Shown here in pieces: positions 1-52,003 of a DNA stretch of 64,000 bases. A program made the position numbers and the translations under genes. Origin of the DNA: Planctomycetota bacterium (GTDB lineage Bacteria; Planctomycetota; UBA1135; UBA2386); the NCBI GenBank assembly GCA_046290465.1, contig JBKAGP010000001.1, positions 1,696,001 through 1,760,000 of the forward strand. Direction: 5' to 3'. Position 1 is the first letter of the stretch. Each line of letters starts with the position of its first letter. The notes under the pieces are model-generated. The model saw only the letters and a list, made by a program, of their open reading frames with translations. It was not told the origin of the DNA and did no database searches.

Positions 1-102
1 GCGACTTCCGGTGCCGTCTCCCCTCGTCGGCACCCGTCCACCCATTTTCGGTTCCCGAATTCCCTGCAGCCCTTCTCTGCAGCCAACCATCGGAGTCTGT
101 CT

Positions 103-2985: not shown

Positions 2986-3021
2986 TCCCCCACCGCAACA
3001 CACATCCAAGGACTGACCACG

Positions 3022-4140
3022 ATGCGATTCCTCCCCCTGTTGTTGCCGGTGGCGCTGCTGCTGCCGGCCACCGCGACCGCCCAGAAGATCAACGACGTCG
3101 TCCTCAAGAAGGACGGCGCGCGGGTGCGCGGTCTCGAGATCACCGACTTCCTGCTCTCGGGCGTGCGCGGCAAGCGCGGCTCGGATGACTTCGAGCTGCC
3201 CGCGCACCTCGTCAAGGACATCGAGTGGAGCGACCTGCCCGAAGAGTTCACCGCCGGCAAGGGCGCGATGGGCCGCGGCGACTTCGCCGCCGCCGCGCAG
3301 TTCTTCGGCGCGGTGCAGAGCGACCGGCCGCTGGTGAAGGCCGACGCCGAGTTCTTCAAGATCAAGGCCGCCGTCGCCGGCATCGGCGCGGACAAGGGCG
3401 CCGCCGCCACCGCGGCGTCGCACATGAAGGACTGGATCAGCAGCAACGTGAACCACTGGCGCACGCCCGAGGCCCTGCTGCTGCAGGGTCGCGCCGAGCG
3501 CCTGGCCGGCACCGCCGGCGCGGCCACGACGACGCTGAAGGAACTCGACGACCGCGCGATCCGCGACGGCTTCGGCACGATCTGGAGCGCGCGCGCCAAG
3601 TACGAACTGGCCCTGACGCTGGTCGCCGACGGCAAGGCCGCCGAGGCCCGCACGCAGTTCAAGTCGGCCAGCTCGGCCGCCGACACGGCGCTCAGCACGA
3701 CCGATACCGACAAGCCGGAGCTCGAGAACCTGAAGACGCTCGCGCGCGTCGGCGAAGGCGAGACCTACCTCGTCGACAAGGACTTCAAGCAGGCGGCGGC
3801 GTTCTTCAAGAGCCTCGCCAACAGCAGCACGCCCGCGCTGAAGGCCGCCGCGGCCGCCGGCGAGGGCGAAGCGATCTTCCTCGACGCCGTCGCCAAGGAC
3901 GACGCCAACGGCCTGCGCCGCGCGCAGATGGCGCTGGCTCGCGCCAGCGTCTTCGACAGCACCAGCGGCGAGTCGAGCGCCAAGGCGAACTACTACCTCG
4001 GCCGCTGCCTGCTGGCGCTCGGCGCGCAGAAGGAGGGCGACTCGTTCAAGCAACGCGCCCAGCAGTACTTCGAGATCGTCTACACGTCGTACCCGTCGAC
4101 CCGCTGGGCCGGCCTGGCGAAGACCGAGTCGCAGAAGTAG
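3022..4140 (+). CDS. Secreted TPR-like protein (372 aa)
   Basis: AAGGA RBS; signal peptide (ATA-Q); TPR-like segments (AKANYYLGRCLLALG); ends YPSTRWA like outer-membrane-associated TPR proteins. Confidence 0.7.
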   Translation: MRFLPLLLPVALLLPATATAQKINDVVLKKDGARVRGLEITDFLLSGVRGKRGSDDFELPAHLVKDIEWSDLPEEFTAGKGAMGRGDFAAAAQFFGAVQSDRPLVKADAEFFKIKAAVAGIGADKGAAATAASHMKDWISSNVNHWRTPEALLLQGRAERLAGTAGAATTTLKELDDRAIRDGFGTIWSARAKYELALTLVADGKAAEARTQFKSASSAADTALSTTDTDKPELENLKTLARVGEGETYLVDKDFKQAAAFFKSLANSSTPALKAAAAAGEGEAIFLDAVAKDDANGLRRAQMALARASVFDSTSGESSAKANYYLGRCLLALGAQKEGDSFKQRAQQYFEIVYTSYPSTRWAGLAKTESQK

Positions 4141-4337
4141 TCGTCGCTCTGCCGCTGGGCCAACCCGCTGGGCCAACCCGCCTGGCAGGGCGCCACGAGG
4201 CCGTTCCCGGCGCAGATTTGTTTGCGCCGGGGGCTTCCCAGCGGCCCCCCGGTCGAGCAAACTTCCTCCCCCCTCTTTTTCGAATCCTTCGAAGCCCCTC
4301 TCCCCCGCCTCGCGCCCGTTGTGAGGCCGCAGTTCCC

Positions 4338-5060
4338 ATGATCCTCAAGCACGTGCCGTCCGTTCGGTTCCTCGCCGTTTCCGCGCCCCTTCTGTTCGCC
4401 AGCTCGCTGTTCGCCCAGGAAGGGGATGGCGGCGCGACGGAGAAGCCGGGCTTCCTCGAAGACGTCATCGACAACGCCGGCGTCATCGGTGGCCTCATCG
4501 TCCTCATGTCGATCATCGCGCTGGCGCTGATCATCGAGAACTTCATGTCGATCAAGCGCGAGAAGATCGCGCCGCCCGACCTGCTCGACGAGATCGAGGC
4601 GCTGTTCGACGGCGAGAACTTCCAGGACGCGGTCGAGCTGTGCGAGCAGGAGAAGAACTACATGACCAACGTCGTCGGCGCTGGTCTGTCGAAGCTCGGC
4701 CACGAGTTCGAGACCATGCAGACGTCGATCCGCGAGATGCAGACCGAGGAGTCGGTCAAGCTCTTCCAGAAGATCGGCTGGCTGTCGCTGATCTCGGCCA
4801 TCGCGCCGATGATGGGTCTGTTCGGCACGGTGACGGGCATGTTCGACACGTTCGGCACGATCGCGGCGTCGGGCGGCAACGTCTCGCCGGCGAAGCTCGC
4901 AGGCGGCATTAAGGGCGCGCTCGTCACGACGATGCTCGGCCTGATGGTCGCCATCCCGGTCGGCATCGGCTTCTTCGTGATGCGCAACCGCGTCATCCGC
5001 ACCTCGACGGAAGTCAACGCCATCACCGAGGACCTGTTCGAGCGCTTCCGCTCGAAGTAG
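4338..5060 (+). CDS. exbB: MotA/TolQ/ExbB proton-channel family protein (240 aa)
   Basis: ATG at 4338 inside track ORF 3225..5060; motifs APMMGLFGTVTGM and ALVTTMLGLMVAIP; followed by two ExbD genes. Confidence 0.9.
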   Translation: MILKHVPSVRFLAVSAPLLFASSLFAQEGDGGATEKPGFLEDVIDNAGVIGGLIVLMSIIALALIIENFMSIKREKIAPPDLLDEIEALFDGENFQDAVELCEQEKNYMTNVVGAGLSKLGHEFETMQTSIREMQTEESVKLFQKIGWLSLISAIAPMMGLFGTVTGMFDTFGTIAASGGNVSPAKLAGGIKGALVTTMLGLMVAIPVGIGFFVMRNRVIRTSTEVNAITEDLFERFRSK

Positions 5061-5184
5061 TCCCCCGGAACAGGCCGATCCGAGCCGCACCGAACCTCCC
5101 GCACGGGAACCACGTTCGTAGCGGCCTGGATCTCACCCCGCATCGCGTCGCCCCACGGCGGCGCACAACCGGAGGAACCGCCGA

Positions 5185-5727
5185 GTGAACATCGAAAAAA
5201 TCGTTCAGGAGGAGCTCGACATGGACATGACGCCCATGATCGATTGCGTCTTCCTGCTGATGATCTTCTTCGTGCTGGTCATCGACCTCAGCCAGAAGAA
5301 CCTCGAGGACCTGATCCTGCCGCGTGCAGAGTTCCAGGAGCCTGACGACGAGCCGCCCGAGAACCGCCCGATCCTGAACGTGCTGCAGAACGGCACGGTC
5401 ATCTATCAGGGCAAGGTCTACTACGACGCGCTCAAGGACGGCAAGAACTACGCCCCCATCAAGAAGCTGCTCGCGGAGATCCGCCGTGTCGGCATCACCA
5501 ACAAGACGCTGCACCTCGTCCCGAAGGACGTCGGCGGGGTCGACGCGATGGTGATGGACGAGCCGGTGCTGATCCGTGCCGACAAGTGGACCGAATGGCA
5601 CTACGTCGGCGAGATCATGAAGCAGTGCTCGCAGCCCGACATCGCGTTCTGGAAGGTGCAGCTTGCCCTTTCGGAAGAGGACAAGGAAACCGGCGAGAAG
5701 AACACCAGCCTGACGAGGGGGCAGTAA
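5185..5727 (+). CDS. exbD: ExbD/TolR family protein (180 aa)
   Basis: GGAGG RBS, GTG start; TM motif MDMTPMIDCVFLLMIFF with conserved Asp; periplasmic VLIRADK motif. Confidence 0.9.
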   Translation: MNIEKIVQEELDMDMTPMIDCVFLLMIFFVLVIDLSQKNLEDLILPRAEFQEPDDEPPENRPILNVLQNGTVIYQGKVYYDALKDGKNYAPIKKLLAEIRRVGITNKTLHLVPKDVGGVDAMVMDEPVLIRADKWTEWHYVGEIMKQCSQPDIAFWKVQLALSEEDKETGEKNTSLTRGQ

Positions 5728-5730
5728 GCC

Positions 5731-6279
5731 ATGAGCGCAATCGACGACGCCCAGGAAGAAGCCAAGGCCGACATGACGCCGATGATCGACGTCGTGTTCC
5801 TGATGATCATCTTCTTCATCTGCATCGAGTTCAAAGTCCTCGAGTCGAAGCTCGACGCGTTCCTGCCGACGGACAAGGGCAGCCAGAACACCGTCGTGGA
5901 GCCCGAAGAGCAGCTCGCCATCAAGATCCACGTCGAGAGCAACGGCTCCAAGGACTTCAGCAAGTACGGTGGTCAGGGCATCAACCCGGGAACGGGTCGC
6001 CCGAACCGCTTCGTGCTGAACGGCCACAAGGTGAAGTGGGAGATCGGCCCGAAGCCGGTCTACTCGCTCGCCGAGGTCCAGAAGGAGCTGAAGCGGATCG
6101 CCGACGATCCGGCCAGCCAGATCCCGGACAAGAAGACCGGTGGCACCAAGCTGATGAGCTGTGTCATCGAGGCCTACCCGGGCACCTACTACGAAGACGT
6201 CGCCAAGACCAACGACGCCGCCAACAACGCCGGCTTCACGGAAGTCAACTTCGGCGGCGGCCTCGGCCCGGGCAAGTAG
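5731..6279 (+). CDS. exbD: Second ExbD/TolR family protein (182 aa)
   Basis: DMTPMIDVVFLMIIFF TM motif; C-terminal AGFTEVNF; 3 nt after previous stop. Confidence 0.88.
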   Translation: MSAIDDAQEEAKADMTPMIDVVFLMIIFFICIEFKVLESKLDAFLPTDKGSQNTVVEPEEQLAIKIHVESNGSKDFSKYGGQGINPGTGRPNRFVLNGHKVKWEIGPKPVYSLAEVQKELKRIADDPASQIPDKKTGGTKLMSCVIEAYPGTYYEDVAKTNDAANNAGFTEVNFGGGLGPGK

Positions 6280-6405
6280 GGCAGCAGACGCGGGCAACTC
6301 CAGCCCGCTTCTCCAGCCAGCTCCTCTTGCAAGCTGGCCGCTGCACTCTCCCGCTGCACTCTCCCGCTGGCCGCAGCCCGCCCCCCGCGGGCAGCTCGGC
6401 GCCCC

Positions 6406-6445
6406 GAACAGGCCCGCACCCCGGTGCGGGCCTGTTCTGGTTTTG
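6406..6445 (+). terminator. Probable intrinsic terminator after exbD2
   Basis: Inverted repeat gaacaggcccgcacc / ggtgcgggcctgttc followed by tggttttg. Confidence 0.6.
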
Positions 6446-6825
6446 CAGTGCCTCGCGGCCGCGCCCACCCCACCCCGGTCGGGTTCTCGAGTACTGCCCC
6501 GGCATTGCGACACTGCCGGCCGCAACCACGCCCCCATTGGCTCCACAACCCACTGCCACATCGCGAAAAACCCCTGGCACGACCTCTCGGGTGCCGCTAG
6601 CGTTTGGCCCCTTGCGACCGGCTCTCCCTACGTTTGCCGGCCGCAACAACGTCCGCTCCGTGTCGTCGCAAGTCCCTCTCGATCGGTCGCATGTGAAACG
6701 TCCCCTCCACATGCGGCGATGCCTCCACATCGTGTTCGTCCACCGATCGCTTGTCGCCGTCTCGGAAATCGGGCCCATCCCCAATGGGTCCAATCGCAAT
6801 CTGGTTACGCACCGAGCGTGAAACG

Positions 6826-9420
6826 ATGGCTCTCGAACATCCGCGCCTTCTCGCTGCTTCGCTGACGGTCGCCTTCCTGGCGGCCTCCTGCTCCACCCCG
6901 AACGACGGCTCCAACGAGTCGTCGAACCCGAACGTCGCCAACGAGTCCAACTCGAACGGCGGCTCGGCGATGACGGGCGAGCCTTCCTCCAACCAAGACC
7001 CGCAGTCCCCCGGCCGGCAAGGCCAGGGCACGGTCGCCGACCAGCGCAAGGCCGTGCTGGTTGCCAACTGGCTCGACAATGCGCGCAAGCTGCGCATGCA
7101 GGGCGAGCTGCAGGCGGCCAAGCTCGAGCTGCTGAAGGCCAAGGACCTGGCGCCCACCAACGAGCAGGTGCGCAGCGAACTGGCTGCGGTGCAGGCCGAG
7201 CTCGGCGAGCCGGTCGGCGTCATCACCACCTACGGTGACGAGGTCATGCGCCTGCAGAAGATCGCCGAGGAGCGCGCCCGCGCCACGGTGCAGAACCAGC
7301 TGCAGACCGCCCAGCAGCAGATGGCGGACAAGAACTTCGCCGGCGCGATCGAAGAGCTGCGCCGCGCGTCGCTCGCGATCGAGATCAAGGACGACGTCGA
7401 CTGGATGGGCCTGCCCAGCCAGGTCGCCGCGGCCAAGGCCGAGGCCGAGCGCCTCTACGACGAGCAGCAACGCTCCAGCCAGGCGGCCGAGAACGCCCAG
7501 CTGGCCGAGCAGCTGCGCCGCGAGTTCGAGCGCAACCAGGCGCGCAAGCGCGCGCAGGTCGACGGCCTGATCCAGCAGTCGCAGGTTGCCTTCGAGGCGC
7601 GCCAGTTCGAGCGTTCGCAGGACTTCGCCCAGCGCGCGCTGGAGATGGACCCGTCGAACTCGCTGGCCTACGAGATGCTCAACGCCGCGACCAAGGCGGC
7701 GCGTGACTCGGCCAACGACGACTACTGGCGCCGTCGCGCCCTCGAGATCCGGCAGATGCTCGAGGCGCACGAGGAGCTCAAGACGCCCCAGACCGACATC
7801 CTGGTCATGGACGACGAGGTCTGGGAGCGCGCCAACCGGCGCAGCACCCGCCGCGGCGACAAGCGCCTGCTCAGCCCCGAGGACGCGGCGCTGACGCAGC
7901 TGGTCGACACCGCGCAGGTCGGCCGTCTCACCTACACGGACGAGACCGGCGCCTACCTCGACGTGCTCAAGAACCTGAGCCTGATCACGGGCGTGCAGAT
8001 CCTGACCACGCCGGAAGCGCGCACCGTCATCGAGGACGAGAGCCTGACCGTCGTCATCGAGCTGGCCTCGTCGATGACGCTCAAGAACTTCCTCAACCAC
8101 ATGGTCTCGCGCAGCGAGAACCTCGCCTGGACGATCCGCGAAGGCGTGGTCGTGGTCGGCGACAAGTCGCAGGCCGCCGGCACGCTGATCACCGAGATCT
8201 ACCCGGTCAAGGACCTGATCTTCCAGCAGACGCAGTTCCTGCCGCCGACCATCCGCGACATCCCGACCGAGGACGCCGGCGATGTCCCGCGCACCGGCGG
8301 TGAGGGCGACGATCCGATCGCCGGCATCGAGCTGACCGACCTGGTCGACACGCTGATGAACGCCACGGACCCGACCTACTGGGAGACCGAAGGCGTCGAG
8401 ATCCGCCCGGAGGACTCGGGCCTGCTGTCGGTGACGGCGAGCCCGGAGATGCAGGACAAGCTGGTCAAGGTGCTGGCGAACATGCGTCGCTTCCAGACGC
8501 CGATCGTCACCATCGACTCGAAGTTCCTGACCATCTCCCGCAACTTCCTGCAGGAGATCGGCATCGACATCCGCGGCCTCGGCGGCTCGGGCAACAAGGG
8601 CGACACCGTGTCGCTCGACGACGTCACCAACGGCCTGGTCAACAACGCTTCGCGCGGCCAGGACAACGGCGGCACCGGCGACCCGGCGGCCAACCCGCTG
8701 GCCGGCGCGTTCTTCAACGACGGCAGCGACGGCGACATCCGCGCCCGCACCGAGAACTACTTCGTCAACGACCTGGGTCGCGTGCTCTCCCCCACCGGTG
8801 GCCTGACCGCCGGCTGGACGCTGATCGACGACACCCAGCTCAACCTGATCCTGCGCGCCGTCGAGAAGCGCCAGGACGGCGAGGTCGTCAACAGCCAGAT
8901 CCTGTCGGTCGTCAACCGCGGCCGCGGCCACGTCGCCGTCATCAACCAGACGGCCTACGTGCGCGACTTCGACGTCGAAGTGGCGCAGGCGGCGTTCATC
9001 GCCGACCCGAAGGTCGACGTGATCCAGGACGGCATCGTGCTGGACGTGCAGCCGATCATCCAGAACGACCGGAAGTACATCACGCTCAACCTCAACCCGA
9101 CGGTTGCCGAACTGCAGCGCCCGATCCCGACGTTCACGACGTCGCTCGCCGGCTCGACGCTGCCGGTCACGGTCCAGCTGCCGAACCTCACGGTCACGAA
9201 CTTCTCGACGACCGTGAAGGTCCCGGACGGCGGCACGGTGCTGCTGGGCGGCCTGCGTCAGGTGCTCACCAAGGAGCGCCGCGCCGAGGTCCCGCTGCTG
9301 TCGCGCCTGCCGCTGATCTCGTTCCTGTTCAAGCAGGAGGGCTCGGCCGACGAGAACCGCAGCCTGATGGTGATGGTGCGCGCGCAGATCACCGACATCG
9401 TCGAAGAGAGCGAGCGCTAG
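6826..9420 (+). CDS. Secretin family (GspD/PilQ-like) outer-membrane lipoprotein with helical/TPR-like N-terminus (864 aa)
   Basis: ATG 6826; lipobox LAASC; C-terminal secretin motifs IVTIDSKFL, GIVLDVQP, TTVKVPDGGTVLLGGL, VPLLSRLPLISFLFK. Confidence 0.85.
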   Translation: MALEHPRLLAASLTVAFLAASCSTPNDGSNESSNPNVANESNSNGGSAMTGEPSSNQDPQSPGRQGQGTVADQRKAVLVANWLDNARKLRMQGELQAAKLELLKAKDLAPTNEQVRSELAAVQAELGEPVGVITTYGDEVMRLQKIAEERARATVQNQLQTAQQQMADKNFAGAIEELRRASLAIEIKDDVDWMGLPSQVAAAKAEAERLYDEQQRSSQAAENAQLAEQLRREFERNQARKRAQVDGLIQQSQVAFEARQFERSQDFAQRALEMDPSNSLAYEMLNAATKAARDSANDDYWRRRALEIRQMLEAHEELKTPQTDILVMDDEVWERANRRSTRRGDKRLLSPEDAALTQLVDTAQVGRLTYTDETGAYLDVLKNLSLITGVQILTTPEARTVIEDESLTVVIELASSMTLKNFLNHMVSRSENLAWTIREGVVVVGDKSQAAGTLITEIYPVKDLIFQQTQFLPPTIRDIPTEDAGDVPRTGGEGDDPIAGIELTDLVDTLMNATDPTYWETEGVEIRPEDSGLLSVTASPEMQDKLVKVLANMRRFQTPIVTIDSKFLTISRNFLQEIGIDIRGLGGSGNKGDTVSLDDVTNGLVNNASRGQDNGGTGDPAANPLAGAFFNDGSDGDIRARTENYFVNDLGRVLSPTGGLTAGWTLIDDTQLNLILRAVEKRQDGEVVNSQILSVVNRGRGHVAVINQTAYVRDFDVEVAQAAFIADPKVDVIQDGIVLDVQPIIQNDRKYITLNLNPTVAELQRPIPTFTTSLAGSTLPVTVQLPNLTVTNFSTTVKVPDGGTVLLGGLRQVLTKERRAEVPLLSRLPLISFLFKQEGSADENRSLMVMVRAQITDIVEESER

Positions 9421-10331: not shown

Positions 10332-10346
10332 CGGCCGATCGGTCTC

Positions 10347-10406
10347 GGTGACCAGGAGCAGGGTGGCCAGGCGCACGGTGGCCTGGCGCACGGTGGCCAG
10401 GCTGCG
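10347..10406. repeat. 15-nt tandem repeat x4 (consensus ggtggccaggcgcac)
   Basis: Units ggtgaccaggagcag, ggtggccaggcgcac, ggtggcctggcgcac, ggtggccaggctgcg between convergent genes. Confidence 0.8.
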
Positions 10407-10429: not shown

Positions 10430-11521
10430 CTACTTGAGCTGCTCCCAGAAGTCCTCGGGCATGTCGTGCGCGATCTTCAGCGCGCCGTTGCTGCCGCCGT
10501 AGATCGGCTCCTCGATGCGGATCACCTTGCCGCCGCCGAGGTGCTCCTTCATCGCGTTCTCGACCGCGCTGTCGAGTCCCTTGACCATCGAACCGCCGCC
10601 GGCGAGCAGCACGCGGTCCTTCAGCCGGGCCTGGAACTCCGGGTCGAACGTCGAGACCAGCTTCTTGATGCCCTCGAGGATCGGCTCGATCAGGATCGAG
10701 CAGGCCTTCTGCAGCTGGTCGGTCAGGTCGAACTGGGTCGGCTTGCCGTCGACCGGCAGCTCGACCTTGACGCGCTCGGGGGCGTCTCCGACGAAGCCGT
10801 AGCGCTCCTTGATCTGCTTGATCATCTGCACCGTGAACTGCGCGCCCGGGCAGCTCGCTTCGATCTGCCTCGCCAGCTCGGCATCGACCGCGTCGCCGGC
10901 GATGTCGAACATCACCTGGTCGGTCTCCTCCGGCATCGTGCCGTGCATGCGGCAGAGGTCGGTGGTGCCTGCGCCGATGTCGATGACCAGCACGTCCTCG
11001 AGCCAGTCGAGGCCGTAGGCGACCGCGAACGGCTCCGAGCACAGCATCACCGAGTCGACCGTCTCGCGAGCGGCTTCGATGATCGCCTCGCGGTTCTTCA
11101 TCGAGGCTTCGGCCGGCGCGCCGATCACGCAGTAGACCAGCTCGTCCGAGCGCGGCTTGGCCAGCCGGATGGCTTCGGCGATCAGGTCACGCGCGGCCTT
11201 CATGTTGGCCTTGGACTCCTCGTCGGCGTCGGCGCCGCTCTTGATGACGCCCTTCTCGAGCGGCTTGTAGAGCTTCAGCGACATGCGCTTCTCGATCGCT
11301 TCCTTGCCGAACAGCACGTCCTTCTTGAGGAGCTTCTTGGCGACGACGTCCTTCGGGTAGCCGACGGTCGAGAAGACCGTCTCGCGGACGCCGTTGCTCG
11401 CCGACACCGAAGTGCGCGACGTGCCGAGGTCCATCCCGATGTAGAGCACGCCGTGGTCCTTGTTGGCGTCGTCGCCGCCCTGACCGGCCGCGTTCGTATC
11501 CGTGTCGTTCGTATCCGTCAT
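10430..11521 (-). CDS. mamK: MamK-family actin-like ATPase (363 aa)
   Basis: Actin motifs IGMDLGTSRT, SEPFAVAYGL, IDIGAGTTD, LAGGGS; MamK-like segments VGYPKDV, P..DQV, GKP, C-terminal MPEDFWEQL; GGAGG RBS. Confidence 0.85.
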   Translation of the reverse strand: MTDTNDTDTNAAGQGGDDANKDHGVLYIGMDLGTSRTSVSASNGVRETVFSTVGYPKDVVAKKLLKKDVLFGKEAIEKRMSLKLYKPLEKGVIKSGADADEESKANMKAARDLIAEAIRLAKPRSDELVYCVIGAPAEASMKNREAIIEAARETVDSVMLCSEPFAVAYGLDWLEDVLVIDIGAGTTDLCRMHGTMPEETDQVMFDIAGDAVDAELARQIEASCPGAQFTVQMIKQIKERYGFVGDAPERVKVELPVDGKPTQFDLTDQLQKACSILIEPILEGIKKLVSTFDPEFQARLKDRVLLAGGGSMVKGLDSAVENAMKEHLGGGKVIRIEEPIYGGSNGALKIAHDMPEDFWEQLK

Positions 11522-11548
11522 GAGTTCCTAACCTCCAACTGGCGGACC

Positions 11549-12343
11549 TCAGGCGCCCTTGCTGCGCTTCTGCAGCTTCAGGTTGGCCTTGAAGATGTCC
11601 GCCATCAGTTCTTTCTTCTTGCCGGCCTGCGTGTCGGATTCGTCGAGGCCCTGGACCTCACGATAGATCGACGAGATCCCGGACTCGACATCCTTCATCG
11701 CCGAGACCTTCGCGAGCCGCTGCTCGGTCGACGCCAGCGTATCGTTGAGCTTCTTGATGCGCCGCTGCAGGTTGCCGACCTCGCGGTCCTGCAGCGCCTT
11801 GCGCGCGGTCTCGGCGGTCTTGCGCTCACCGCCGACGACGTCCATCACCAGCGCCATCAGCCGCTCTTCGACGGTGCCCATGTCGGCCTCGCCGCCGCCG
11901 GCCAGCGAACGCACGACCTCGGCGACCTTGGTCGCGATCTCGGCGTTCTCGCCCTGGTAGCGGGTCGCCAGCTCGACCGCGTCCTGCTCGAGCTTGAGCT
12001 TCAGCGCGCCCTGCTTCTGCGCCAGTTCGCGGCGCATCAGGTCGATCTCCTCCTCGGCGCGCTCACGCGCCCGCTCGACCTCGGACTTCTCGCGCTGCAG
12101 GTCCTCGTTGCTGCGCAGCAGGCGCAGGAACTCGGCCTTGGTCGACTCCGCGACCGCCTCGCGCTCGATGCCGACCAGCCGCGACTTGAGGCTGCGGTGC
12201 ACCGCCGCCTCGATCAGCGCGATGATGCGATCGATGCCGAGCACGTTGACGTTCTGGACGCCCTTCTTCTTGAGCTTGTCCAGCGACGTGCGGAACGACA
12301 TCTGCCGCACCGCGTCCTTCAGCGTCTCCTTGAACCCGGCCAC
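11549..12343 (-). CDS. Coiled-coil protein of unknown function (264 aa)
   Basis: GTG start 3 nt after upstream stop; long E/K/R/L heptad-like runs; no TM segment or signal peptide. Confidence 0.75.
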   Translation of the reverse strand: MAGFKETLKDAVRQMSFRTSLDKLKKKGVQNVNVLGIDRIIALIEAAVHRSLKSRLVGIEREAVAESTKAEFLRLLRSNEDLQREKSEVERARERAEEEIDLMRRELAQKQGALKLKLEQDAVELATRYQGENAEIATKVAEVVRSLAGGGEADMGTVEERLMALVMDVVGGERKTAETARKALQDREVGNLQRRIKKLNDTLASTEQRLAKVSAMKDVESGISSIYREVQGLDESDTQAGKKKELMADIFKANLKLQKRSKGA

Positions 12344-12346
12344 GCG

Positions 12347-13117
12347 CTACTCCGCCTCCTCCGGGATCGGGTCGTAGGCCAGCCGCCGGTCGCTGTCCGG
12401 GTCCTGGCCGCGCACCTCGGTGACGAACGTGCCGAGCACGTTGCCGCCCATGTCGCTGAGCACCTGCCACGCGTCGCGCGACTGCTTCTTCAGCGAGTGC
12501 TCGAGCCGCACCACCAGCAGCGTGCCGTCGGCCGCCGACGACAGCACGCCGGCGTCGGTCGACGGCAGCACCGGCGGCGTGTCGATGACGACGTACTGGA
12601 ACCGTTCCTTCAGCCGCTGCAGCAGCTGATCGAGGCGCGACGAGCTGAGCACCTCGGCCGGATTCTCGACGCGCGAACCGGCCCCCAGCAACATCAGGTT
12701 GCGGTAGCCCGCGGGGCGCAGCAGCTTGTCGACCGGCGCGTGGCCGAGCAGCACGTCGGTCAGGCCGGCCTCGTGGTTGAGGTTGAGGTAGCGCTCGCAG
12801 CTCGGCCGCCGCAGGTCCGCGTCGACCAGCACGACCTCCTGCCGCTCGAGTTCGGCGAACGCCATCGCGAGGTTCAGCGCCGACACCGTCTTGCCCTCGC
12901 CGCGCACCGCCGAGGTCACCACCAGCGTCTTCGGCTCGCCGTCCGGGTTCATCGCCACCAGGCGGTTGCGCAGCCCGCGCACCTGCTCGGCGCGGAAGCC
13001 CGCAGGCTCGTGGAACAGCACCAGGTACGGGTTCACCGACTGGTCGACGACGACGACCATGTCGTCCTCCCCGAGCTCGGGATCACCTGGTTGGGTTGGC
13101 TTCTTGCGACGGAACAT
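12347..13117 (-). CDS. CpsD/CapB-like (BY-kinase/MinD-ParA superfamily) P-loop protein, soluble (256 aa)
   Basis: EQVRGLRNRL (ExxRxxR), Walker A SAVRGEGKT, A' VLVDADLRRP, Walker B VVIDTPPVL; no Tyr-rich tail. Confidence 0.85.
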   Translation of the reverse strand: MFRRKKPTQPGDPELGEDDMVVVVDQSVNPYLVLFHEPAGFRAEQVRGLRNRLVAMNPDGEPKTLVVTSAVRGEGKTVSALNLAMAFAELERQEVVLVDADLRRPSCERYLNLNHEAGLTDVLLGHAPVDKLLRPAGYRNLMLLGAGSRVENPAEVLSSSRLDQLLQRLKERFQYVVIDTPPVLPSTDAGVLSSAADGTLLVVRLEHSLKKQSRDAWQVLSDMGGNVLGTFVTEVRGQDPDSDRRLAYDPIPEEAE

Positions 13118-13325
13118 GCAGACGGACGCGGCTGTAGCCGCTCATCGGGTTTTCGGAATCCGTGCGGGTCGCACTTGTTCCGGACTGGATGCGATTGGCG
13201 GATACGAGACGCCCGCACGGGCGGGCAGCCGCTGTGGGCGCCGGCAAGCCGCCATGCGAACGGCAACTCGTGACGTGGTGCGCGCCCACGGCTTTGCAGT
13301 GTATAGCGATTTGGAATCGCGGGGA

Positions 13326-13922
13326 CTACGGACAAACGCGTCCGGAAAAACCGGGGCCCGAGAATGCTCCGGTGCCATCGAGGTCGAACGTCAGCCAGCC
13401 GAACCGGAACCGGTAGGCCTCGACCGCGCCACTGGCGCCGAGCGTCGCCGTGACCTCGCCGCCGCCCAGCGCCGGGCAGAGCCGCACCTCGGTACGGCCG
13501 CCATCGGCCGCGCGCTCGGCCAGCACGCGCGCCGACGTCGGCGGCACGGCCAGTTCGGCCAGGATGCCGGCGAGCACCAGCGCCAGGTGCGGCTCGGCGT
13601 CGGCCAGCGGCGGCGGCGCCCGGTAGTCGCCGTCCGGCGTGCTCGCCGCAAGGCCGCCCTGCCGTGCCGTGACGTCGAGCACCTTGCCACCGATGTCCGG
13701 AAACAGCTGCACGCGCAGCACCCCGTCGGACCGGTCCCAGACGCCGTCGAACACGCCGGCGAGCTGGTCGGACTCGAGTTCGAGCACGAACGTGCCGCCG
13801 AGCTGGCCGGCGAGCGGCATCGGCGCGACGCGCTGCAGCGTGCTCGCGGTCGGCGGCCCGAACGAACGGCACCCGGCGACCACGAGCAGCGCCAGCAACA
13901 GCGACCGCGAGCGCCTCGTCAT
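13326..13922 (-). CDS. Hypothetical lipoprotein of the PKS-like cluster (198 aa)
   Basis: ATG overlaps the MMPL stop (ATGA); lipobox VAGC; beta-rich body. Confidence 0.65.
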   Translation of the reverse strand: MTRRSRSLLLALLVVAGCRSFGPPTASTLQRVAPMPLAGQLGGTFVLELESDQLAGVFDGVWDRSDGVLRVQLFPDIGGKVLDVTARQGGLAASTPDGDYRAPPPLADAEPHLALVLAGILAELAVPPTSARVLAERAADGGRTEVRLCPALGGGEVTATLGASGAVEAYRFRFGWLTFDLDGTGAFSGPGFSGRVCP

Positions 13923-16276
13923 CCGGCCCTCCGCGTGCGCGCCAGCAGCGGCGCCAGGACGAACAGGCAGCTCAGCATGCACGCCATCGAGCCGAACGCC
14001 ACCACGCCGCCGAGCAGCTGCAGGCCGGGCGTAGCCGCCAGCAGCAGCGACGAGAATCCGAGCACCGTGCCGACGCTGGTGCGCACGATGCCGACCCCGG
14101 TCGCGCCGGTGTCGGTCGCACCGTGGCGGTAGTGGCCGACCAGGTGCACGCCCTCGTCGACCCCGATGCCGAGCACGAACGGCACCGACACGAAGCTGAT
14201 CATCGACAGCGGCACGTCGAACAGCCGCAGCAGCACCAGCGTCACCACCAGCCCGAGCACGCTCGGCACCAGCGCCAGCAGGCCGTGTCGCAGCGAGCGC
14301 AGCCACCAGGTGACCATGCCGACCGCGAGCAGCGCGGCGATCCAGCACGCCCGCTGCAGGTCGCGCACCAGCATCTCCTCGAGCGCCGCGGTCAGCGTCG
14401 GCCCGCCGTGCAGCACGACGTCGTCGCCGGCGACCTCGCGCAGCTGCTGCTGCAGGTCGAAGAACGCCTCCCGATCCTGGCGCTGCGCCGGCCACAGCGT
14501 CACCGCGCGGTGCGGCCGTCCTTCGAACGTGACAACCTTGCCGGCGGCGGGCGCGTCGCCGTCGTTCGCCAGCCGCCGCTGCAGGTCCGCCAGCGCTGGC
14601 CGGAACGCGGCCGCCTGCAGCCCCTCCCGGTCCAGCGCGGCCTCGGCCCGGCCGACGAAGCCGTCGAGATCGGCCCGGCACGCCTGCACCGCCGCGCGGC
14701 CGGCGGCGGTGTCGCGACGATCGAGGCCGGTCCAGAAGCGCAGCTGCTGCCGTTCGCGCAGCCCGACCAGCGCGGCGTGCAGCGGCGACGCGTCGACCTG
14801 CTCGGGCCACAGCGCCAACACCGGCACGGTCGAGAAGCCGACGCGCTGCTCGATCGTGCGCCGCGCCGCCGACACCGGGTCGCCCTTCGGCCGCACCGCT
14901 TCGGCTTCGGCCGACAGCTCGATGCCGGCGACCAGCAGGTAGCCGACGCCGGCGAGCGCCAGCGCGATGGCCGCCCACGCCGAAAGCGGCGCCGCCCGGT
15001 GCAGCAGCCAGCGATCGGCGGCCGCGGCCAGCGCGCTGCGCTCCGGATCGGGACGGTCGCCGGCCCAGCGCAGCAGCACCGGCAGGGCGAAGATCGTGAA
15101 CAGCACGCTGCCGACGAGGCCGAGCGCCAGCAGCAGGCCGAACGCGCGCAGGCCGCCCTCGGTGCCGGCTCCGATCGCCAGGAACGTCACCGCCGTCGTC
15201 ATCATGTCGATCAGCAGTTCGGGCACCGTGGTGCGCTGCACCTCGCGCACCGCGTCGTCGTGCGCCAGCTCGAGCCGCGCGCGCCGGTAGCGGGCCGCGT
15301 AGTGGATCGCGAAGTCGACCCCGAGGCCGCACAGCACCGCGACCGCAGCGACCGCCACCGTCGGCAGCGCGCCGAAGCAGACCGCGCCGAACGGGATCGC
15401 CCACAGGATCGACAGCATCGCCGGCAGCTGCACCAGCAGCGGCAGGCGCACGCCGCGCATCACCCAGCACAGGTAGAGCGCGATCGCCAGCACCGACCAG
15501 GTGCTGGCGCGTTCGAAGTCGGCCTTGATGCGACGCTGGTCGGCACGCGCGATCGCGTAGCCGCCGAACACGTCGGCCTCGACGTCGAGCGCCTGCAGTT
15601 CGCGGTCGACGAACGCACACAGCTCGGTCGCGAAGTCGGCGTCGTAGGCGTCCCGGGTGCCGCGCAGCTGCAGCAGCGCGCGGGTGCCCTGCTCGAGCAG
15701 CAGCAGGTCCGTGCCCTCGTCGAAGCCGAGCGCCGCGAGCGGATCGGCGTCGGCCAGCACGAAGCGCAGCCCCAGCGGATCCCGCAGCGCCAGCTCGCGC
15801 GCCGCGAGCGGGTCGTCGGCGAGGTCGAACGCGAGCTCCGTGGCCGCCTCCTGCAGCCCTTCCGCCGACAGCCGCGCCGACAGCCGCGCCAGCTGGTCGT
15901 CGTCGAGCTGCCACAGCGGCGCCCGTTCGAAGTGCGCGCGCTGCTCGGCGAACAGCTCACCGCGAGTGCTGGCGACCGCGTCGATCTGCGCGGACGCGCG
16001 CAGCCGTTCGGCGAGTCGGCCGACCTTGTCGGCCAACCCGTCGCCGCGCAGCAGCAGCCACATCACGCGCGCCGGCCGCGAACGGTCGTCGAGCAGCTGC
16101 GCGATGCGCACGTGCGGGTGGTCCGACGGCAGCACCCGCGAGATGTCGGGCTCGAAGCGCACCAGCGGCCAGGCCAGCAGCGCCAGGATCGTGACGACCA
16201 GCGCCGCCGAGATCGTCATGCGCGGCCGCCGCAGCGGCAGCGTGACGACCGTCTCGAACCAGCGCGGCGCACTCAC
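13919..16276 (-). CDS. MMPL/RND family lipid exporter (785 aa)
   Basis: GTG at 16276 overlapping the ligase stop; two TM bundles with GLGVDFAIH and GIGVDEGVH motifs. Confidence 0.88.
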   Translation of the reverse strand: MSAPRWFETVVTLPLRRPRMTISAALVVTILALLAWPLVRFEPDISRVLPSDHPHVRIAQLLDDRSRPARVMWLLLRGDGLADKVGRLAERLRASAQIDAVASTRGELFAEQRAHFERAPLWQLDDDQLARLSARLSAEGLQEAATELAFDLADDPLAARELALRDPLGLRFVLADADPLAALGFDEGTDLLLLEQGTRALLQLRGTRDAYDADFATELCAFVDRELQALDVEADVFGGYAIARADQRRIKADFERASTWSVLAIALYLCWVMRGVRLPLLVQLPAMLSILWAIPFGAVCFGALPTVAVAAVAVLCGLGVDFAIHYAARYRRARLELAHDDAVREVQRTTVPELLIDMMTTAVTFLAIGAGTEGGLRAFGLLLALGLVGSVLFTIFALPVLLRWAGDRPDPERSALAAAADRWLLHRAAPLSAWAAIALALAGVGYLLVAGIELSAEAEAVRPKGDPVSAARRTIEQRVGFSTVPVLALWPEQVDASPLHAALVGLRERQQLRFWTGLDRRDTAAGRAAVQACRADLDGFVGRAEAALDREGLQAAAFRPALADLQRRLANDGDAPAAGKVVTFEGRPHRAVTLWPAQRQDREAFFDLQQQLREVAGDDVVLHGGPTLTAALEEMLVRDLQRACWIAALLAVGMVTWWLRSLRHGLLALVPSVLGLVVTLVLLRLFDVPLSMISFVSVPFVLGIGVDEGVHLVGHYRHGATDTGATGVGIVRTSVGTVLGFSSLLLAATPGLQLLGGVVAFGSMACMLSCLFVLAPLLARTRRAG

Positions 16277-17613
16277 GCGTCGTCTCTCTGCAGCAGCCGT
16301 TCGAGCTGTTCGCGGACCAGCTTGCCGCGCTCGCTGCGCGGCAGCGATGGCACCACCGTGATCCGTCGCGGCACCTTGGCCGCCGGCAGCACCTCGGCGC
16401 AGTGGCGCCGCACGCGTTCGGCGCAGGCGTCGTCCGATGCGACGATCGCGGCGCACGCCGCGCGCCCCTGCTCGTCGCGCCACGGCAGCACCGCGACGTC
16501 CTGCACGTCGTCGAGCTGCGCGATGATGCGTTCGACCTCGCGCGGGTCGACCTTGTGCCCGCCGACGTCGAACACGTCGCCGGCGCGGCCCTGCAGCACC
16601 AGCTCGCCGTCGACGAACGCCCCGAGGTCGGGCGCGACGAAGCGGCCGCCGGCCGGGTTGCCGCAGCCGGACAGCGCGGTGCCGACCGCCGGCGAGGTCA
16701 CCACCACGCGGCCGTCGTCGTCGATCGTCACGTCGACGCCGTCGACCGGCCTGCCGACCGTGCCGCGCTCGGCCGCCTCGCCGGTGCGGTCGTAGCTGAT
16801 GCCGCCGCTCTCGGTCGAGCCGTAGAACGTATGCACCGGCAGGGTGAAGCGCCGCCGGAACGCGGCCGCGACGTCGCGCTGCAGCACCGCCCCCGCCGAC
16901 AGCACCAGCCGCAGGCTGTCGGGCAGCGCGGGCGCGCCGCTGCACAGCGCGCGCAGCAGCGCCGGCACCGCCGGCAGCACCGTGGGTGCCGCCGCGCGCA
17001 TCGCGCCGAGCAGGCCGAGCGGGCCGCTGCCCGGCAGCACCAGTTCGCGGCCCCGGCAGAGCGCCGGCACCAGCAGGTTGCCGACGCCGTAGCTGAACGA
17101 CATCGGCACCGCGGCCAGCACCCGGTCGCCGTCGCCGATGCCCATGGTCCCTTCCAGCGCCGCGCCGTCCGCCAGCAGCTCGGCATCGCCGACCGCGACC
17201 GCGTTGGGTTCGCCGGTCGACCCCGACGTCAACTTGATCGCGCGGTGCTGCCCGGCCGGCGCGCGGCCCTCGCACGGCAGCACGCGCGGTGCCGGCGCAT
17301 CGACGACGATCGCACGCAGCCCGAATCGCGCCGCCAGGTCCAACCGCGGCGCCCGCGGATCGGCCGCGTCGAACAGCATCGCCGCGTCGCCGCGCCGGAC
17401 GCAGGCCAGGAACGCCCCGAGGAACGCGAAGCCGTCCCGCACGCACAGCCCGACCCTCGAGCCCACCGGCGTGCCTGCCAGCAGCTGCTCGAAGAGGCCG
17501 GCGCTTGCATCCAGGTCGGCCCGGCAGCGAATCCCGTCGGGCGTCCATGCGACCGTGGCCGTCGGGTCGGCTTCGAGCAGCGCGGCAAAGGCATCACGGA
17601 CCGTCAACGGCAT
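16273..17613 (-). CDS. AMP-dependent acyl-CoA/acyl-ACP ligase (446 aa)
   Basis: ATG 17613; LTSGSTGEP, FYGSTESG, GRAGDVFDVGGHKVDPREVE, LPRSERGKL. Confidence 0.88.
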   Translation of the reverse strand: MPLTVRDAFAALLEADPTATVAWTPDGIRCRADLDASAGLFEQLLAGTPVGSRVGLCVRDGFAFLGAFLACVRRGDAAMLFDAADPRAPRLDLAARFGLRAIVVDAPAPRVLPCEGRAPAGQHRAIKLTSGSTGEPNAVAVGDAELLADGAALEGTMGIGDGDRVLAAVPMSFSYGVGNLLVPALCRGRELVLPGSGPLGLLGAMRAAAPTVLPAVPALLRALCSGAPALPDSLRLVLSAGAVLQRDVAAAFRRRFTLPVHTFYGSTESGGISYDRTGEAAERGTVGRPVDGVDVTIDDDGRVVVTSPAVGTALSGCGNPAGGRFVAPDLGAFVDGELVLQGRAGDVFDVGGHKVDPREVERIIAQLDDVQDVAVLPWRDEQGRAACAAIVASDDACAERVRRHCAEVLPAAKVPRRITVVPSLPRSERGKLVREQLERLLQRDDA

Positions 17614-17733
17614 GGAACGCCGAGCGAGACTACGGACTGCCCCCGAACCGGCAAGCCTGCATTGCCCCAGGGACGCCACAACCCGGCCAAACGCGGGACC
17701 TGACGCGTCCGCACCGCTACACTCCAGGCGCAC

Positions 17734-18021
17734 ATGACCAACCAGGTATCGGTCGACCAGCTCAAGGTGATGCTCGTCGACAAGCTCAACTTGAAGTCGG
17801 TGACCGCCGACCAGATCACCGACGATCACGCCCTGTTCGGCCCCGAGGGCCTCGGCCTCGACTCCGTCGACGCGCTCGAACTGGTGCTCGCGATCGAGTC
17901 CGAGTATGGCATCCAGATCCAGGACGAAGAGGTCGGCCGCGAGGCCTTCCACTCCGTGCAGGTGCTCTGCAACTTCATCAACCAACGCCTCGCCGCGGGC
18001 GACGCATCCGCCGGCGCGTGA
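17734..18021 (+). CDS. Acyl carrier protein (95 aa)
   Basis: GLGLDSVDALELV phosphopantetheine motif; acidic. Confidence 0.92.
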   Translation: MTNQVSVDQLKVMLVDKLNLKSVTADQITDDHALFGPEGLGLDSVDALELVLAIESEYGIQIQDEEVGREAFHSVQVLCNFINQRLAAGDASAGA

Positions 18022-19211
18022 ACGAGCAGGTCGTCGTCACCGGCGTCGGCTCCGTCAGCGGACTCGGCGCCACCGCGGAACAGCTGTGGCAGCGCGCGCT
18101 GCAGGGCCAGCGCGGCATGCGCGAACTCGACCTGTTCTCGACCGACAGCCATCGCACGCGGCTGGCGGTCCAGGTCGACGATGCGTCGCTGCCCGCGCGG
18201 TTCGCCCACCTGGCGCGGGCCGATCGCTTCGGCTGCACCGCGACCGCGGCGGCCGTCGCCGGCCTGCCCACCGAGGCGCTGCATTCGCCGCGCGCCGGCG
18301 TGTTCTTCGGCAGCAGCACCGGTGCCTTGTTCGAGGGCGAACGGTTCCTCAAGGAGCTGCTGGCCGAACGCGAGGGCGACCTGCACACGATCGTCGGCCT
18401 GCAGAACGACGGGCCCGGCAACGCGGTCGCGCACGAGTTTGCGGTGCGCGGCCCGGTGATGACGTTCTCGACCGCGTGCACGTCGGCCAACGTCGCGCTC
18501 GGCGCCGCACTCGACGCGCTGCGCTCGGGCGAGGTCGACGTCGCGATCGCCGGTGGCGCCGACGAACTGTGCGAGATCACCTACGCCGGCTTCAACAGCC
18601 TGCGCGCGATCGACGCCAGGCCGACGCGGCCGTTCCGCGCGGATCGCGCCGGCCTGTCGATGGGCGAGGGCTCGGGCGTGCTGCTGCTCGAGACCCGTAG
18701 CCATGCCGAGGCACGCGGCGCGACCGTGCTGGCCGAGCTGTGCGGCGCGGCGCGCTCCTGCGACGCGCAGCACGTCTCGGCGCCGGATCCCGAAGGCATC
18801 GGGGCCGCGACCGCGATCGAGACGGCGCTGCGCGAAGGCGGCTTGACCGCGGCGGACGTGACGTTCGTCAACGCGCACGGCACCGGCACGCCGCACAACG
18901 ACGTCTCCGAGAGCCACGCGATGCGCCGCGTGTTCGGCGAGCGCACGGCGCAGCTGCCGATCACGTCGACCAAGAGCATGGTCGGCCACCTGCTGGGTGC
19001 TGCCGGCGGCATCGAAGCGGTGCTGACCGTGCAGGCGATCGTGCACCGGCTGCTGCCGCCGACCGCCGGCGACGCGCCCGCCGACCCCGAGCTCTTTCTC
19101 GACGTGGTCGTCGACGAACCGCGGGCGCTGCCGACGCGCAACGTCGGCCTGTCCACCAACCTGGCGTTCGGCGGCAACAACGCCGTCGTGGTGCTGAGGA
19201 GCGTCTCGTGA
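18018..19211 (+). CDS. Beta-ketoacyl-ACP synthase (FabF/type II PKS KS) (397 aa)
   Basis: GTG overlapping the ACP stop; catalytic STACTS, NAHGTGT, KSMVGHLLGAAG; C-terminal NLAFGGNN. Confidence 0.92.
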   Translation: MNEQVVVTGVGSVSGLGATAEQLWQRALQGQRGMRELDLFSTDSHRTRLAVQVDDASLPARFAHLARADRFGCTATAAAVAGLPTEALHSPRAGVFFGSSTGALFEGERFLKELLAEREGDLHTIVGLQNDGPGNAVAHEFAVRGPVMTFSTACTSANVALGAALDALRSGEVDVAIAGGADELCEITYAGFNSLRAIDARPTRPFRADRAGLSMGEGSGVLLLETRSHAEARGATVLAELCGAARSCDAQHVSAPDPEGIGAATAIETALREGGLTAADVTFVNAHGTGTPHNDVSESHAMRRVFGERTAQLPITSTKSMVGHLLGAAGGIEAVLTVQAIVHRLLPPTAGDAPADPELFLDVVVDEPRALPTRNVGLSTNLAFGGNNAVVVLRSVS

Positions 19212-20401
19212 GCGACGTCGTGGTCACCGGGGTCGGTTGCCTCGGCGCCTACGGGCTCGGCCTCGACGCCCTGCGCACCGCGCTGGCCGCCGGTGCTCCG
19301 CTGGCCAGCGAGGTCGATCGCTCCGCCGGCTACCACCGCCGGGGTTCGGCGCAGACCGTCGCGTCGTGCGGCGAGCTGTCGTTCGAGCCGTGGCTGTCCG
19401 AGGATGCCGGCCGCCGGATGAGCGACCTGTCGCAGTATGCGGTCACCTGCGCGCGCATGGCGCTGCACGACGCCGGCCTCGACGAGGTCCCGAAGGAGCG
19501 CACGGCGGTCTCGATCGCGACCGCGTTCGGTCCCGGCGGCTTCACCGAACGGCTGGCGCTGCAGGTGCTGCAGAAAGGTGGCAAGTTCGCGTCGCCGTTC
19601 TTGTTCACCGACTGCGTCGCCAACGCCGCCGCCGGCCAGATCGCGATCGCGACCGGTGCGCGCGGCGCCAACACGACCATCTGCCAGCGTGAGGCCGGCC
19701 CGCTGCTGGCCGTCGGCCAGGCGATGCTCGACCTGCAGCTCGGCCGCGCCGACGTCTGCCTGGCCGGCGCGATCGACGAGCTCAAGCCGCTGTCGCACGC
19801 GATCCTCGACCGCTTCCGCGCGGTCGCGCGGCCGCGTGACGGCGAGGAGCTGCCACGGCCGTTCGACGCGCGCCGCAATGGTTACCTCGCCGGCGAAGGC
19901 GGCGCGGTGCTGGTGCTCGAACGCGAGCAGCACGCGCGTGCCCGCGGCGCCACCGTGCTGGCTCGCGTGCGCGCGGCGGCGCGCGGCTTCGACCCGACCG
20001 CCCCGCGCACCGGGATCGGCCAGGGCCACCGCGAGCTCGCTGCGCTGCTGCGCGACCGCATCGGCGACGGGCTGCTGGCCGAGACCGACACCGTCGTCAG
20101 CGCGGCCAGCGGCGCCGTGCGCGGCGACGCGCTCGAGGCCCAGGTGCTCGCAGCGGCGCTGCCCCACGCTCCGCGCGTGCTGGCGCCGAAGGCCGTCACC
20201 GGCGAGTTCGGCGGCGGCACGCTGGCACCGGCCATTTTGGCTCTGCAGGGGGCAAGGTTCGCGGTGCCGGTTGGCTGCAACCACCCCGATCCCATGCTCG
20301 AAGTCCGGCTCGAAGCCGGCCCCGCGCACGCGCAACGGCTGCTGTGTTCGGCACACGGCGCGGGCGGCGTCAGCGCCTGGATCCTGTTCGAACGACCATG
20401 A
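19208..20401 (+). CDS. Catalytically inactive KS homologue / chain-length-factor-like (397 aa)
   Basis: KS fold (VVVTGVG, RPFDARRNG, GEGG) but the Cys position reads CQRE and the His motifs are replaced (SAASGA, KAVTGE). Confidence 0.8.
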   Translation: MSDVVVTGVGCLGAYGLGLDALRTALAAGAPLASEVDRSAGYHRRGSAQTVASCGELSFEPWLSEDAGRRMSDLSQYAVTCARMALHDAGLDEVPKERTAVSIATAFGPGGFTERLALQVLQKGGKFASPFLFTDCVANAAAGQIAIATGARGANTTICQREAGPLLAVGQAMLDLQLGRADVCLAGAIDELKPLSHAILDRFRAVARPRDGEELPRPFDARRNGYLAGEGGAVLVLEREQHARARGATVLARVRAAARGFDPTAPRTGIGQGHRELAALLRDRIGDGLLAETDTVVSAASGAVRGDALEAQVLAAALPHAPRVLAPKAVTGEFGGGTLAPAILALQGARFAVPVGCNHPDPMLEVRLEAGPAHAQRLLCSAHGAGGVSAWILFERP

Positions 20402-51358: not shown

Positions 51359-51429
51359 GCCGACGCGCAGGAAATGCGCGAACGGACTGATCCGGCGGGC
51401 ACCGCCCGCCGTTGCAGGCAGGCAATCCC

Positions 51430-51960: not shown

Positions 51961-51988
51961 CCGCTGGACCGCCGCTGACCGCTGGACC
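51953..51988. repeat. 18-nt direct repeat x2 (gccgctgaccgctggacc)
   Basis: Read directly; includes the exbD stop codon. Confidence 0.75.
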
Positions 51989-52003
51989 ACCGAACCGGCC
52001 GCG

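Follow-up and report, generated by a model that had tools for sequence, protein, structure and literature searches.

A MamK-family actin of a planctomycete and its conserved operon with a candidate helical adaptor and a tyrosine-kinase-type ATPase

What does an actin of the MamK family do when it is encoded away from any magnetosome genes? The question is raised by three minus-strand genes in a 64,000-nucleotide stretch of a Planctomycetota bacterium (GTDB lineage Bacteria; Planctomycetota; UBA1135; UBA2386; assembly GCA_046290465.1, contig JBKAGP010000001.1, positions 1,696,001 to 1,760,000). This stretch, hereafter the window, is part of a single 6.59-Mb contig, and positions are given within it unless a genome or locus is named. 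In the order of transcription, the genes encode a P-loop ATPase with the predicted fold of a bacterial tyrosine kinase (BY-kinase; 12347..13117, 256 aa, start ATG), a helical protein (11549..12343, 264 aa, start GTG) and the actin (10430..11521, 363 aa, start ATG). A tight minus-strand operon had been described in a first-pass annotation made from the sequence alone, and the list of open reading frames (ORFs) agreed with it exactly, with 27 nt between the actin and helical-protein genes (11522–11548) and 3 nt between the helical-protein and P-loop genes (12344–12346). All three genes shared the coding pattern of the host, with a GC content at third codon positions of 0.95–0.96 in a genome of 70% GC. 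The trio is probably the operon of a regulated, chromosomal actin cytoskeleton unrelated to magnetosomes. The actin itself appears to be a known one; what looks new is its conserved operon with a helical adaptor and a soluble tyrosine-kinase-type ATPase.

The actin passed the NCBIfam MamK model NF040964 (414.4 bits, cutoff 400; 414.9 bits in the genome search), and the other NCBIfam models scored lower (BeeR 212 bits, cutoff 530; MreB models ≤70 bits). Among solved structures compared with phmmer, MamK (5jyg/5ljv) scored 249 bits, BeeR (8r2n) 140 bits and MreB ≤47 bits. The segments that had been read as MamK-type rather than MreB-type, VGYPKDV, SEPF.V.YGLD, DIGAGTTD..C...GT.P...DQV and the C-terminal P..(F/Y)W.QL, aligned with those of the MamK structures. 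The ATPase motifs of the actin fold were present and aligned to MamK (phosphate-1 D31–T37, phosphate-2 D181–D188, adenosine G308–S311), and these motifs and the tail H352–K363 were invariant in an alignment of 25 orthologs. The placement in the MamK family, and not with MreB or the plasmid Alps, was based on the curated model scores, the solved-structure scores and the statement of a preprint introduced below, and it agreed with the initial assignment. The genome held one MamK-family gene (10430–11521) and a separate true MreB (C1:1031127-1032107, 438.6 bits).

This actin probably has a name already. The main text of a 2019 preprint on the 'Saltatorellota' (bioRxiv 10.1101/817700) describes, in every isolate, MreB together with another actin, 'saltatorellin', which branches near MamK. 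The same text reports that an mCherry fusion of the saltatorellin of strain Poly30 gave filamentous structures in E. coli as well as in a mamK-deletion strain of M. gryphiswaldense, and proposes that saltatorellin drives shape-shifting. The reverse primer published for Poly30 matched the 3' end of the window gene (10430–10451) with 3 mismatches, and the forward primer had no match at ≤3 mismatches. By this sequence comparison, the window gene is probably a saltatorellin ortholog from another strain. It shares with the saltatorellin of Saltatorellus ferox Poly30 the family, the organism group, a coexisting MreB and a non-magnetotactic host. The first-pass annotation had called the trio the best candidate for an undescribed system, which hardly holds for the actin, apparently the one named in 2019 and, in the preprint's main text, shown as filaments for Poly30. 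It seems to hold for its partners: no description of either partner gene was found in print, and the main text of the preprint is silent on both. The helical adaptor and the P-loop ATPase thus look undescribed as saltatorellin partners. Another MamK-related actin of a non-magnetotactic bacterium of the Planctomycetes–Verrucomicrobia–Chlamydiae group is BeeR, which forms a three-stranded tubular filament in Verrucomicrobiota (PMC11929497, where no gene context is given). The window actin differs from it by its scores on the two models (212 bits on BeeR, 414 on MamK).

A second pair of coiled-coil and actin genes was observed in the same genome, outside the window (G000:C1:~6477471-6479381; L102:5472-7381). 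There, the gene of a 269-aa helical protein weakly like the N-terminal block of the trio's helical protein (E 4.6e-4; 22% identity) is followed by that of a 347-aa actin-like protein of the Pfam family Volactin (278.7 bits, cutoff 35). This genome therefore encodes three actin-like proteins, in contrast to the two actin homologs per strain given in the main text of the preprint.

Could the actin be a displaced mamK, or the remnant of a magnetosome gene cluster? Its passing of the MamK cutoff is what speaks for such an origin. Profile searches of the single-contig genome, run with no magnetotactic genome as a positive control, gave no match for MamI or for the magnetochrome domain PF18509, and the best matches to MamP and MamQ stayed far below their cutoffs (23 bits vs 300 and 70 bits vs 250, respectively). 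No magnetosome gene cluster, as would accompany a functional MamK, was found alongside the actin in this genome. The locus structure was kept throughout the order. Across 301 genomes sampled evenly from the phylum, the MamK model was passed in 74 and the MamQ model in none (best match 119.7 bits). These results make a magnetosome origin of the gene extremely improbable and uphold the claim that the actin stands outside any magnetosome context. In joining a MamK-family actin to a soluble coiled-coil partner, the trio resembles two magnetosome systems, MamK with MamJ in Magnetospirillum and MamK with the coiled-coil network of Mad20/23/25/26 in Desulfovibrio magneticus RS-1 (PMC12748827). It differs from these systems in the lack of magnetosome genes here, and its adaptor matches no Pfam or NCBIfam family. 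A kinase-type ATPase partner is not mentioned for them in that literature. As a separate observation, the best MamQ-like match of the phylum sample (G084:C232:1469-2002, under the cutoff of 250 bits) came from a genome that also encodes a MamK-family actin (377.9 bits) and might belong to a magnetotactic planctomycete.

If the actin is not a stray magnetosome gene, are its two neighbours its regular companions? Forty genomes of the same genus, family and order were searched with each trio protein, and the coordinates were tallied by hand. The trio was contiguous in 31 of the 40, always in the order P-loop protein, helical protein, actin; these genomes spanned several families of the order, and the P-loop proteins of the most distant contiguous trios had an identity of approximately 40%. 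Six relatives (G009, G015, G024, G027, G029 and G039; completeness 69–91%) had no saltatorellin-level match. Among 52 loci fetched from named planctomycete metagenome-assembled genomes, 49 had a match to the helical protein immediately upstream of the actin, and in 27 the P-loop gene came next upstream. Wherever the P-loop gene was present (all 27 loci), the match began at residue 8 or earlier of the query. The loci that lacked the gene matched the C-terminal part of the helical protein only (approximately the last 80 residues), except L083, which matched from residue 32, and L037, a locus cut by a contig end.

The same C-terminal part, hereafter the module, was followed through the phylum sample with thresholds of E≤1e-60 for the actin and E≤1e-6 for the module. 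The actin was found in 107 of the 301 genomes and the module in 59. All 59 genomes with the module were among the 107 with the actin, and the 194 actin-less genomes had no module match. Of the 70 places with a module match, 60 lay upstream of an actin place, on the same strand and at a distance of no more than approximately 1.5 kb. The unit conserved across the phylum is therefore the actin with a C-terminal module of approximately 80 aa, and not the trio: the three-gene module of the earlier description is conserved among the relatives, and across the phylum it gives way to the pair. Two arrangements within the sample were also recorded: a tandem of two module-bearing frames before one actin gene (G217:C944:22736-24038), and a single module match approximately 1.5 kb upstream of the actin (G266:C2:114938-117728).

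The helical protein itself belonged to no Pfam or NCBIfam family, DNA-binding families included. Its AlphaFold2 model was all-helical, with long helices at residues 59–148 and 155–216 (mean predicted local distance difference test score, pLDDT, 67; predicted template modelling score 0.35), in keeping with the 264-aa coiled-coil protein expected. An alignment of 21 orthologs displayed two conserved blocks around a variable coiled coil. The N-terminal block comprises residues 1–85 (12089..12343, minus strand). The C-terminal module, aligned from 25 diverse tails, comprises residues 183–264 (11549..11797, minus strand), with R195, E207, G222, S225, Y227, V230, Q231, G232, N254 and L257 invariant. 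It consists of a motif (G222–L233; 11645–11680, minus strand) that is poorly ordered in the model of the lone protein, followed by an amphipathic helix. Residues 218–233 had a pLDDT below 50 in the monomer model although their sequence is invariant, which fits a segment that may become ordered upon binding. An exhaustive search of 1.84 billion representatives with the module profile gave 915 clusters at E≤1e-3, of which 789 reached E≤1e-10; among the 150 hits listed, the module was always C-terminal, and protein lengths clustered around 260 and 340–390 residues. A word-indexed search with the module returned close relatives alone, which were unnamed or had generic labels. In a relative (L103, G031:C26:35500-44000), a MamK-family paralogue at 3090-4920 (382.9 bits, just below the cutoff; 45% identity to the window actin) was preceded by a 230-aa protein that matched the N-terminal part of the helical protein (34% identity, residues 8–150) and had a degenerate tail.

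What does the module bind? The complex of the actin and the module was predicted from alignments of 25 rows each, in three runs with three controls. The interaction prediction score from aligned errors (ipSAE) was 0.79, 0.76 and 0.78 (median 0.78), and the best of the three controls gave 0.00; in a rough calibration, 116 of 157 solved complexes scored this high, as did 2 of 215 mismatched pairs. The runs shared at least 57% of their contacts, with a pLDDT of the partner of at least 63. The predicted interface comprised residues 220–234 (the invariant motif) and 239–261 (the last helix) of the helical protein, and residues 23–27, 41–45, 122–130, 141–152, 159–161, 169–175, 194–196 and 350–362 of the actin. 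The prediction supports binding of the module to the actin without demonstrating it. Together, the co-occurrence with the actin and the controlled complex prediction favour the earlier suggestion that the middle protein is an actin adaptor, and a dedicated adaptor family with a putative docking module is well supported by these two lines of evidence. Residues 163–175 of the actin we take to be the hinge helix, 194–196 the hairpin of subdomain IIA and 350–362 the C-terminal helix, by mapping onto the general actin topology. In actins, these three elements line a cleft used by many partners, and ParR takes the equivalent cleft of ParM.

The predicted mode of docking raises the possibility of a DNA segregation cassette of the ParMRC or Alp7 type. 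Such a cassette would likewise be a gene pair of actin and adaptor, and a short C-terminal helix in the actin groove is how ParR sits on ParM. The likeness to ParM–ParR and to eukaryotic actin–peptide complexes, in which a helix occupies the cleft between subdomains IA and IIA, is one of residue mapping alone: the helix is predicted on the hinge, the 194–196 hairpin and the C-terminal helix. The locus differs from a segregation cassette in being chromosomal and stable in position, with convergent neighbours conserved in 21–22 loci, and in having an adaptor with no match to a DNA-binding family. No direct or iteron-like repeats, such as a centromere would have, were found by a repeat search of the intergenic region upstream of the trio. 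The actin scored 21.8 bits on the ParM model (cutoff 417) and 19.3 bits on Alp7A_like_C (cutoff 22). We consider this origin very unlikely; both the magnetosome and the plasmid-partition explanations are excluded as far as the tools used allow.

More weight attaches to the idea that the helical protein regulates polymerisation, by sequestering monomers or capping filaments, and connects the actin to no separate cargo. On the actin, the predicted interface covers the hinge, the 194–196 hairpin and the C-terminal helix, elements that by residue mapping line the groove of the longitudinal filament contacts. The long coiled coil, the separately conserved N-terminal block and the exchange of input domains between lineages (described below) point instead to a connecting or signal-integrating role. 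Capping and connecting are not mutually exclusive, and we regard a pure polymerisation regulator as a minority possibility that deserves to be kept in view.

The third protein carried the marks of a BY-kinase catalytic domain. It passed the model TIGR01007 (121.9 bits, cutoff 108.05), and its best solved relative was the CapA/CapB chimera 4jlv (105.8 bits), so that its description as a CpsD/CapB-like P-loop protein was correct. Membership in the MinD/ParA group was considered and rejected on the scores for TIGR01968 (45.9 bits, cutoff 212.9) and NF041546 (30.7 bits, cutoff 180). The motif E44-x2-R47-x2-R50, the Walker A (G73–T77), Walker A' (V98–D101) and Walker B (V176–D179) motifs all aligned to CapB and were conserved in an alignment of 28 sequences. 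The E-x2-R-x2-R motif mediates ring contacts in BY-kinases. The protein aligned with the catalytic domain only and had no transmembrane part. Where functional BY-kinases have a tyrosine cluster, its C-terminal tail contained only Y248, a residue shared by 26 of the 28 sequences. It had no transmembrane activator domain, and no adjacent co-polymerase gene was found among 41 scanned ORFs of the window. Judged by its sequence, the protein thus has the features of the BY-kinase fold but lacks these two features of a functional kinase. Compared with the split BY-kinases of the firmicute type (CapB with CapA; PDB 4jlv, 3bfv, 2ved), it shares the fold, the Walker motifs and the E-x2-R-x2-R motif; it differs in the lone C-terminal tyrosine, in the absence of a nearby membrane activator or polysaccharide genes, and in being encoded with an actin and an adaptor.

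The kinase-type end is not the only one that the module is joined to. At three loci of sister lineages (L057, L060 and L075), the protein upstream of the actin was a GGDEF domain fused to the docking module; the loci of this kind with a degenerate GGDEF are L057:3839-5942, L059:3869-5913, L060:3844-5944 and L075:4874-5929. An HDOD-type gene preceded the fusion in L057 and L059 (Pfam match) and in L060 (sequence likeness only), and the upstream gene of L075 belonged to the Lysine_decarbox/SLOG family rather than to HDOD. A GGDEF domain was detected in 40 of 110 near-full-length module representatives (E≤1e-4), and the remainder had no family or marginal ones. The active-site motif GG[D/E]EF, expected of a diguanylate cyclase, was present in none of the 37 of these 40 that were aligned, while an RxxD motif five residues upstream of its position was present in 33 of the 37 and in all three locus proteins examined. 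Loss of GG[D/E]EF with retention of RxxD is the pattern of receptor-type degenerate GGDEF domains. The sister-lineage adaptors therefore resemble degenerate GGDEF receptors of cyclic di-GMP, with a putative nucleotide-binding capacity; the comparison applies to these relatives and not to the adaptor of the window. The input end thus appears to vary: here it is a coiled coil with a kinase-like ATPase, and elsewhere its place is taken by a degenerate GGDEF domain with an HDOD gene in front.

The surroundings bear on where the operon begins and ends. Downstream of the trio, a convergent HAD hydrolase gene was kept in 22 of the 52 fetched loci and a secretin gene in 21, but the lipoprotein and MMPL genes upstream of the P-loop gene were kept in only 8. 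The trio is therefore a self-contained block. As the genes farther upstream are so rarely kept, the operon most likely starts in the 208-nt intergenic region 13118..13325 (minus strand), the presumed promoter region, which was assigned by position. A promoter scan found no sigma-70-like site in this region, and a terminator scan gave a single terminator-like site, on the opposite strand and at chance level. The family scan of the window covered 41 ORFs spanning its whole length (30 + 11, chosen by composition plus four by hand). No mreCD, mam or capsule-export genes were among them, as had been claimed of the window, and no co-polymerase, Wza-type or glycosyltransferase genes either. Several other elements were recorded in passing. 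At 10346-10402, in the 98-nt gap between the HAD and actin genes, a GC-rich repeat of 15-nt period occurs in three overlapping copies, which may be a shared terminator or an element like a repetitive extragenic palindrome. A cluster encoding TPR, ExbD, ExbD and secretin proteins (1-9420) converges with the trio, with the HAD gene between them, and a second pair of ExbD and TPR genes lies at 51412-54037. On the other side, the trio is adjoined by a biosynthetic cluster of lipid type (13326-21951), whose members are a small putative lipoprotein, an MMPL transporter, an AMP-ligase, an acyl carrier protein, a ketoacyl synthase and a halogenase-like flavoprotein. At 56057-56581, a phage tail collar domain (103.7 bits) was recognised in the product of an isolated gene.

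How might the three proteins work together? We propose that the actin forms filaments of the MamK family, as reported in the main text of the preprint for the Poly30 ortholog, and that the helical protein of 264 aa serves it as a dedicated adaptor. The module would dock on a surface of the actin made up of subdomain IA, the hinge between IA and IIA and the C-terminal tail, as modelled. Residue mapping places on this surface the groove in which other actins receive partners that bind filament ends or monomers. Because the predicted interface maps to the cleft of such partners, capture of a filament end or control of monomers is the favoured role of the module, and the coiled coil and N-terminal block would link it elsewhere. 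The BY-kinase-fold ATPase would be a lineage-specific input that acts on the N-terminal block, through ATP-dependent ring assembly or tyrosine phosphorylation; gene order and co-occurrence are what suggest this step. The general design would have three parts, namely a signal input, the docking module and the actin, since other lineages fuse the module to a degenerate GGDEF domain with an HDOD gene before it. The output would most likely be remodelling of cell shape or membranes, as the main text of the preprint proposes for saltatorellin, and this is the weakest step of the scheme. Positioning of a non-magnetic organelle, offered earlier as one function of the filament, found nothing in its support and is less likely.

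Several points weigh against this scheme. No sequencing run recorded as RNA was found to contain the stretch, and four RNA runs that share a label with a DNA run containing it gave 0 reads, a count that carries no weight for or against expression. The score of the complex expresses how confident the model itself is, and the use of our own alignments makes its calibration only rough; the pass could also reflect likeness to solved actin–peptide complexes, and the groove was assigned by mapping residue ranges onto the known actin topology. The sampled genomes are related and hence non-independent. No module match at E≤1e-6 was found in 48 of the 107 actin genomes, so some lineages would use a diverged adaptor or none. 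Three of the 40 relatives (G032, G033 and G040) had the helical protein and the actin with no adjacent P-loop gene. The lone C-terminal tyrosine and the lack of a nearby membrane activator make kinase activity uncertain. Orthologs of the P-loop protein (43–45% identity) in G033, G040 and G029 were encoded away from the actin, beside unrelated proteins of approximately 680 aa; those in G040 and G033 were unrelated to that in G029, and the neighbour in G040 (approximately 685 aa) had no match in the genome of the window.

These stray orthologs suggest a different reading of the ATPase, namely that it lies beside a two-gene unit of actin and adaptor and has no role in it, being either an ordinary BY-kinase of the polysaccharide type or an unrelated ATPase like ParA. 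The best family matches, which are to exopolysaccharide tyrosine kinases, and the pair as the phylum-wide unit agree with this reading. On the other hand, the gene was contiguous with the pair in the 31 relatives, down to the lowest protein identities, and lies 3 nt from the adaptor gene. Among the 52 fetched loci, the full-length N-terminal block of the adaptor occurred only beside a P-loop gene, at each of the 27 such loci, with the locus L083 that lacks the gene matching from residue 32. The genes that would serve a polysaccharide kinase (co-polymerase, Wza-type, glycosyltransferase) were missing from the scanned ORFs, as were the tyrosine cluster and the transmembrane activator domain from the protein. 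On balance, we think a bystander ATPase unlikely. A lineage-specific link between the ATPase and the actin is plausible from gene order and co-occurrence, and the first-pass annotation overstated it by naming the protein a regulator, given the unrelated contexts of the three orthologs.

For the family as a whole, MamK-family actins occurred in about a third of the sampled planctomycete genomes, none of which had MamQ above the cutoff, and a 'MamK' annotation should for this reason not be taken as evidence of magnetotaxis. A bolder and rather doubtful extension is that throughout the Planctomycetota, which lack FtsZ, the pair of actin and module works as a signal-gated cytoskeletal machine, in which interchangeable inputs would couple second-messenger or phosphorylation signals directly to filament ends and so bring about budding or changes of shape; in that case the MamK of magnetosomes would have branched off from this housekeeping family as a specialised form and would not be its founder. 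For the shape-shifting and pseudopod-like behaviour of these bacteria, no candidate motor other than saltatorellin has been put forward. Here it would be accompanied by an adaptor with a mappable docking motif and by a kinase-type ATPase, and in sister lineages by a nucleotide-receptor-like domain in place of the kinase-linked end; the adaptor and the ATPase make the saltatorellin proposal experimentally testable.

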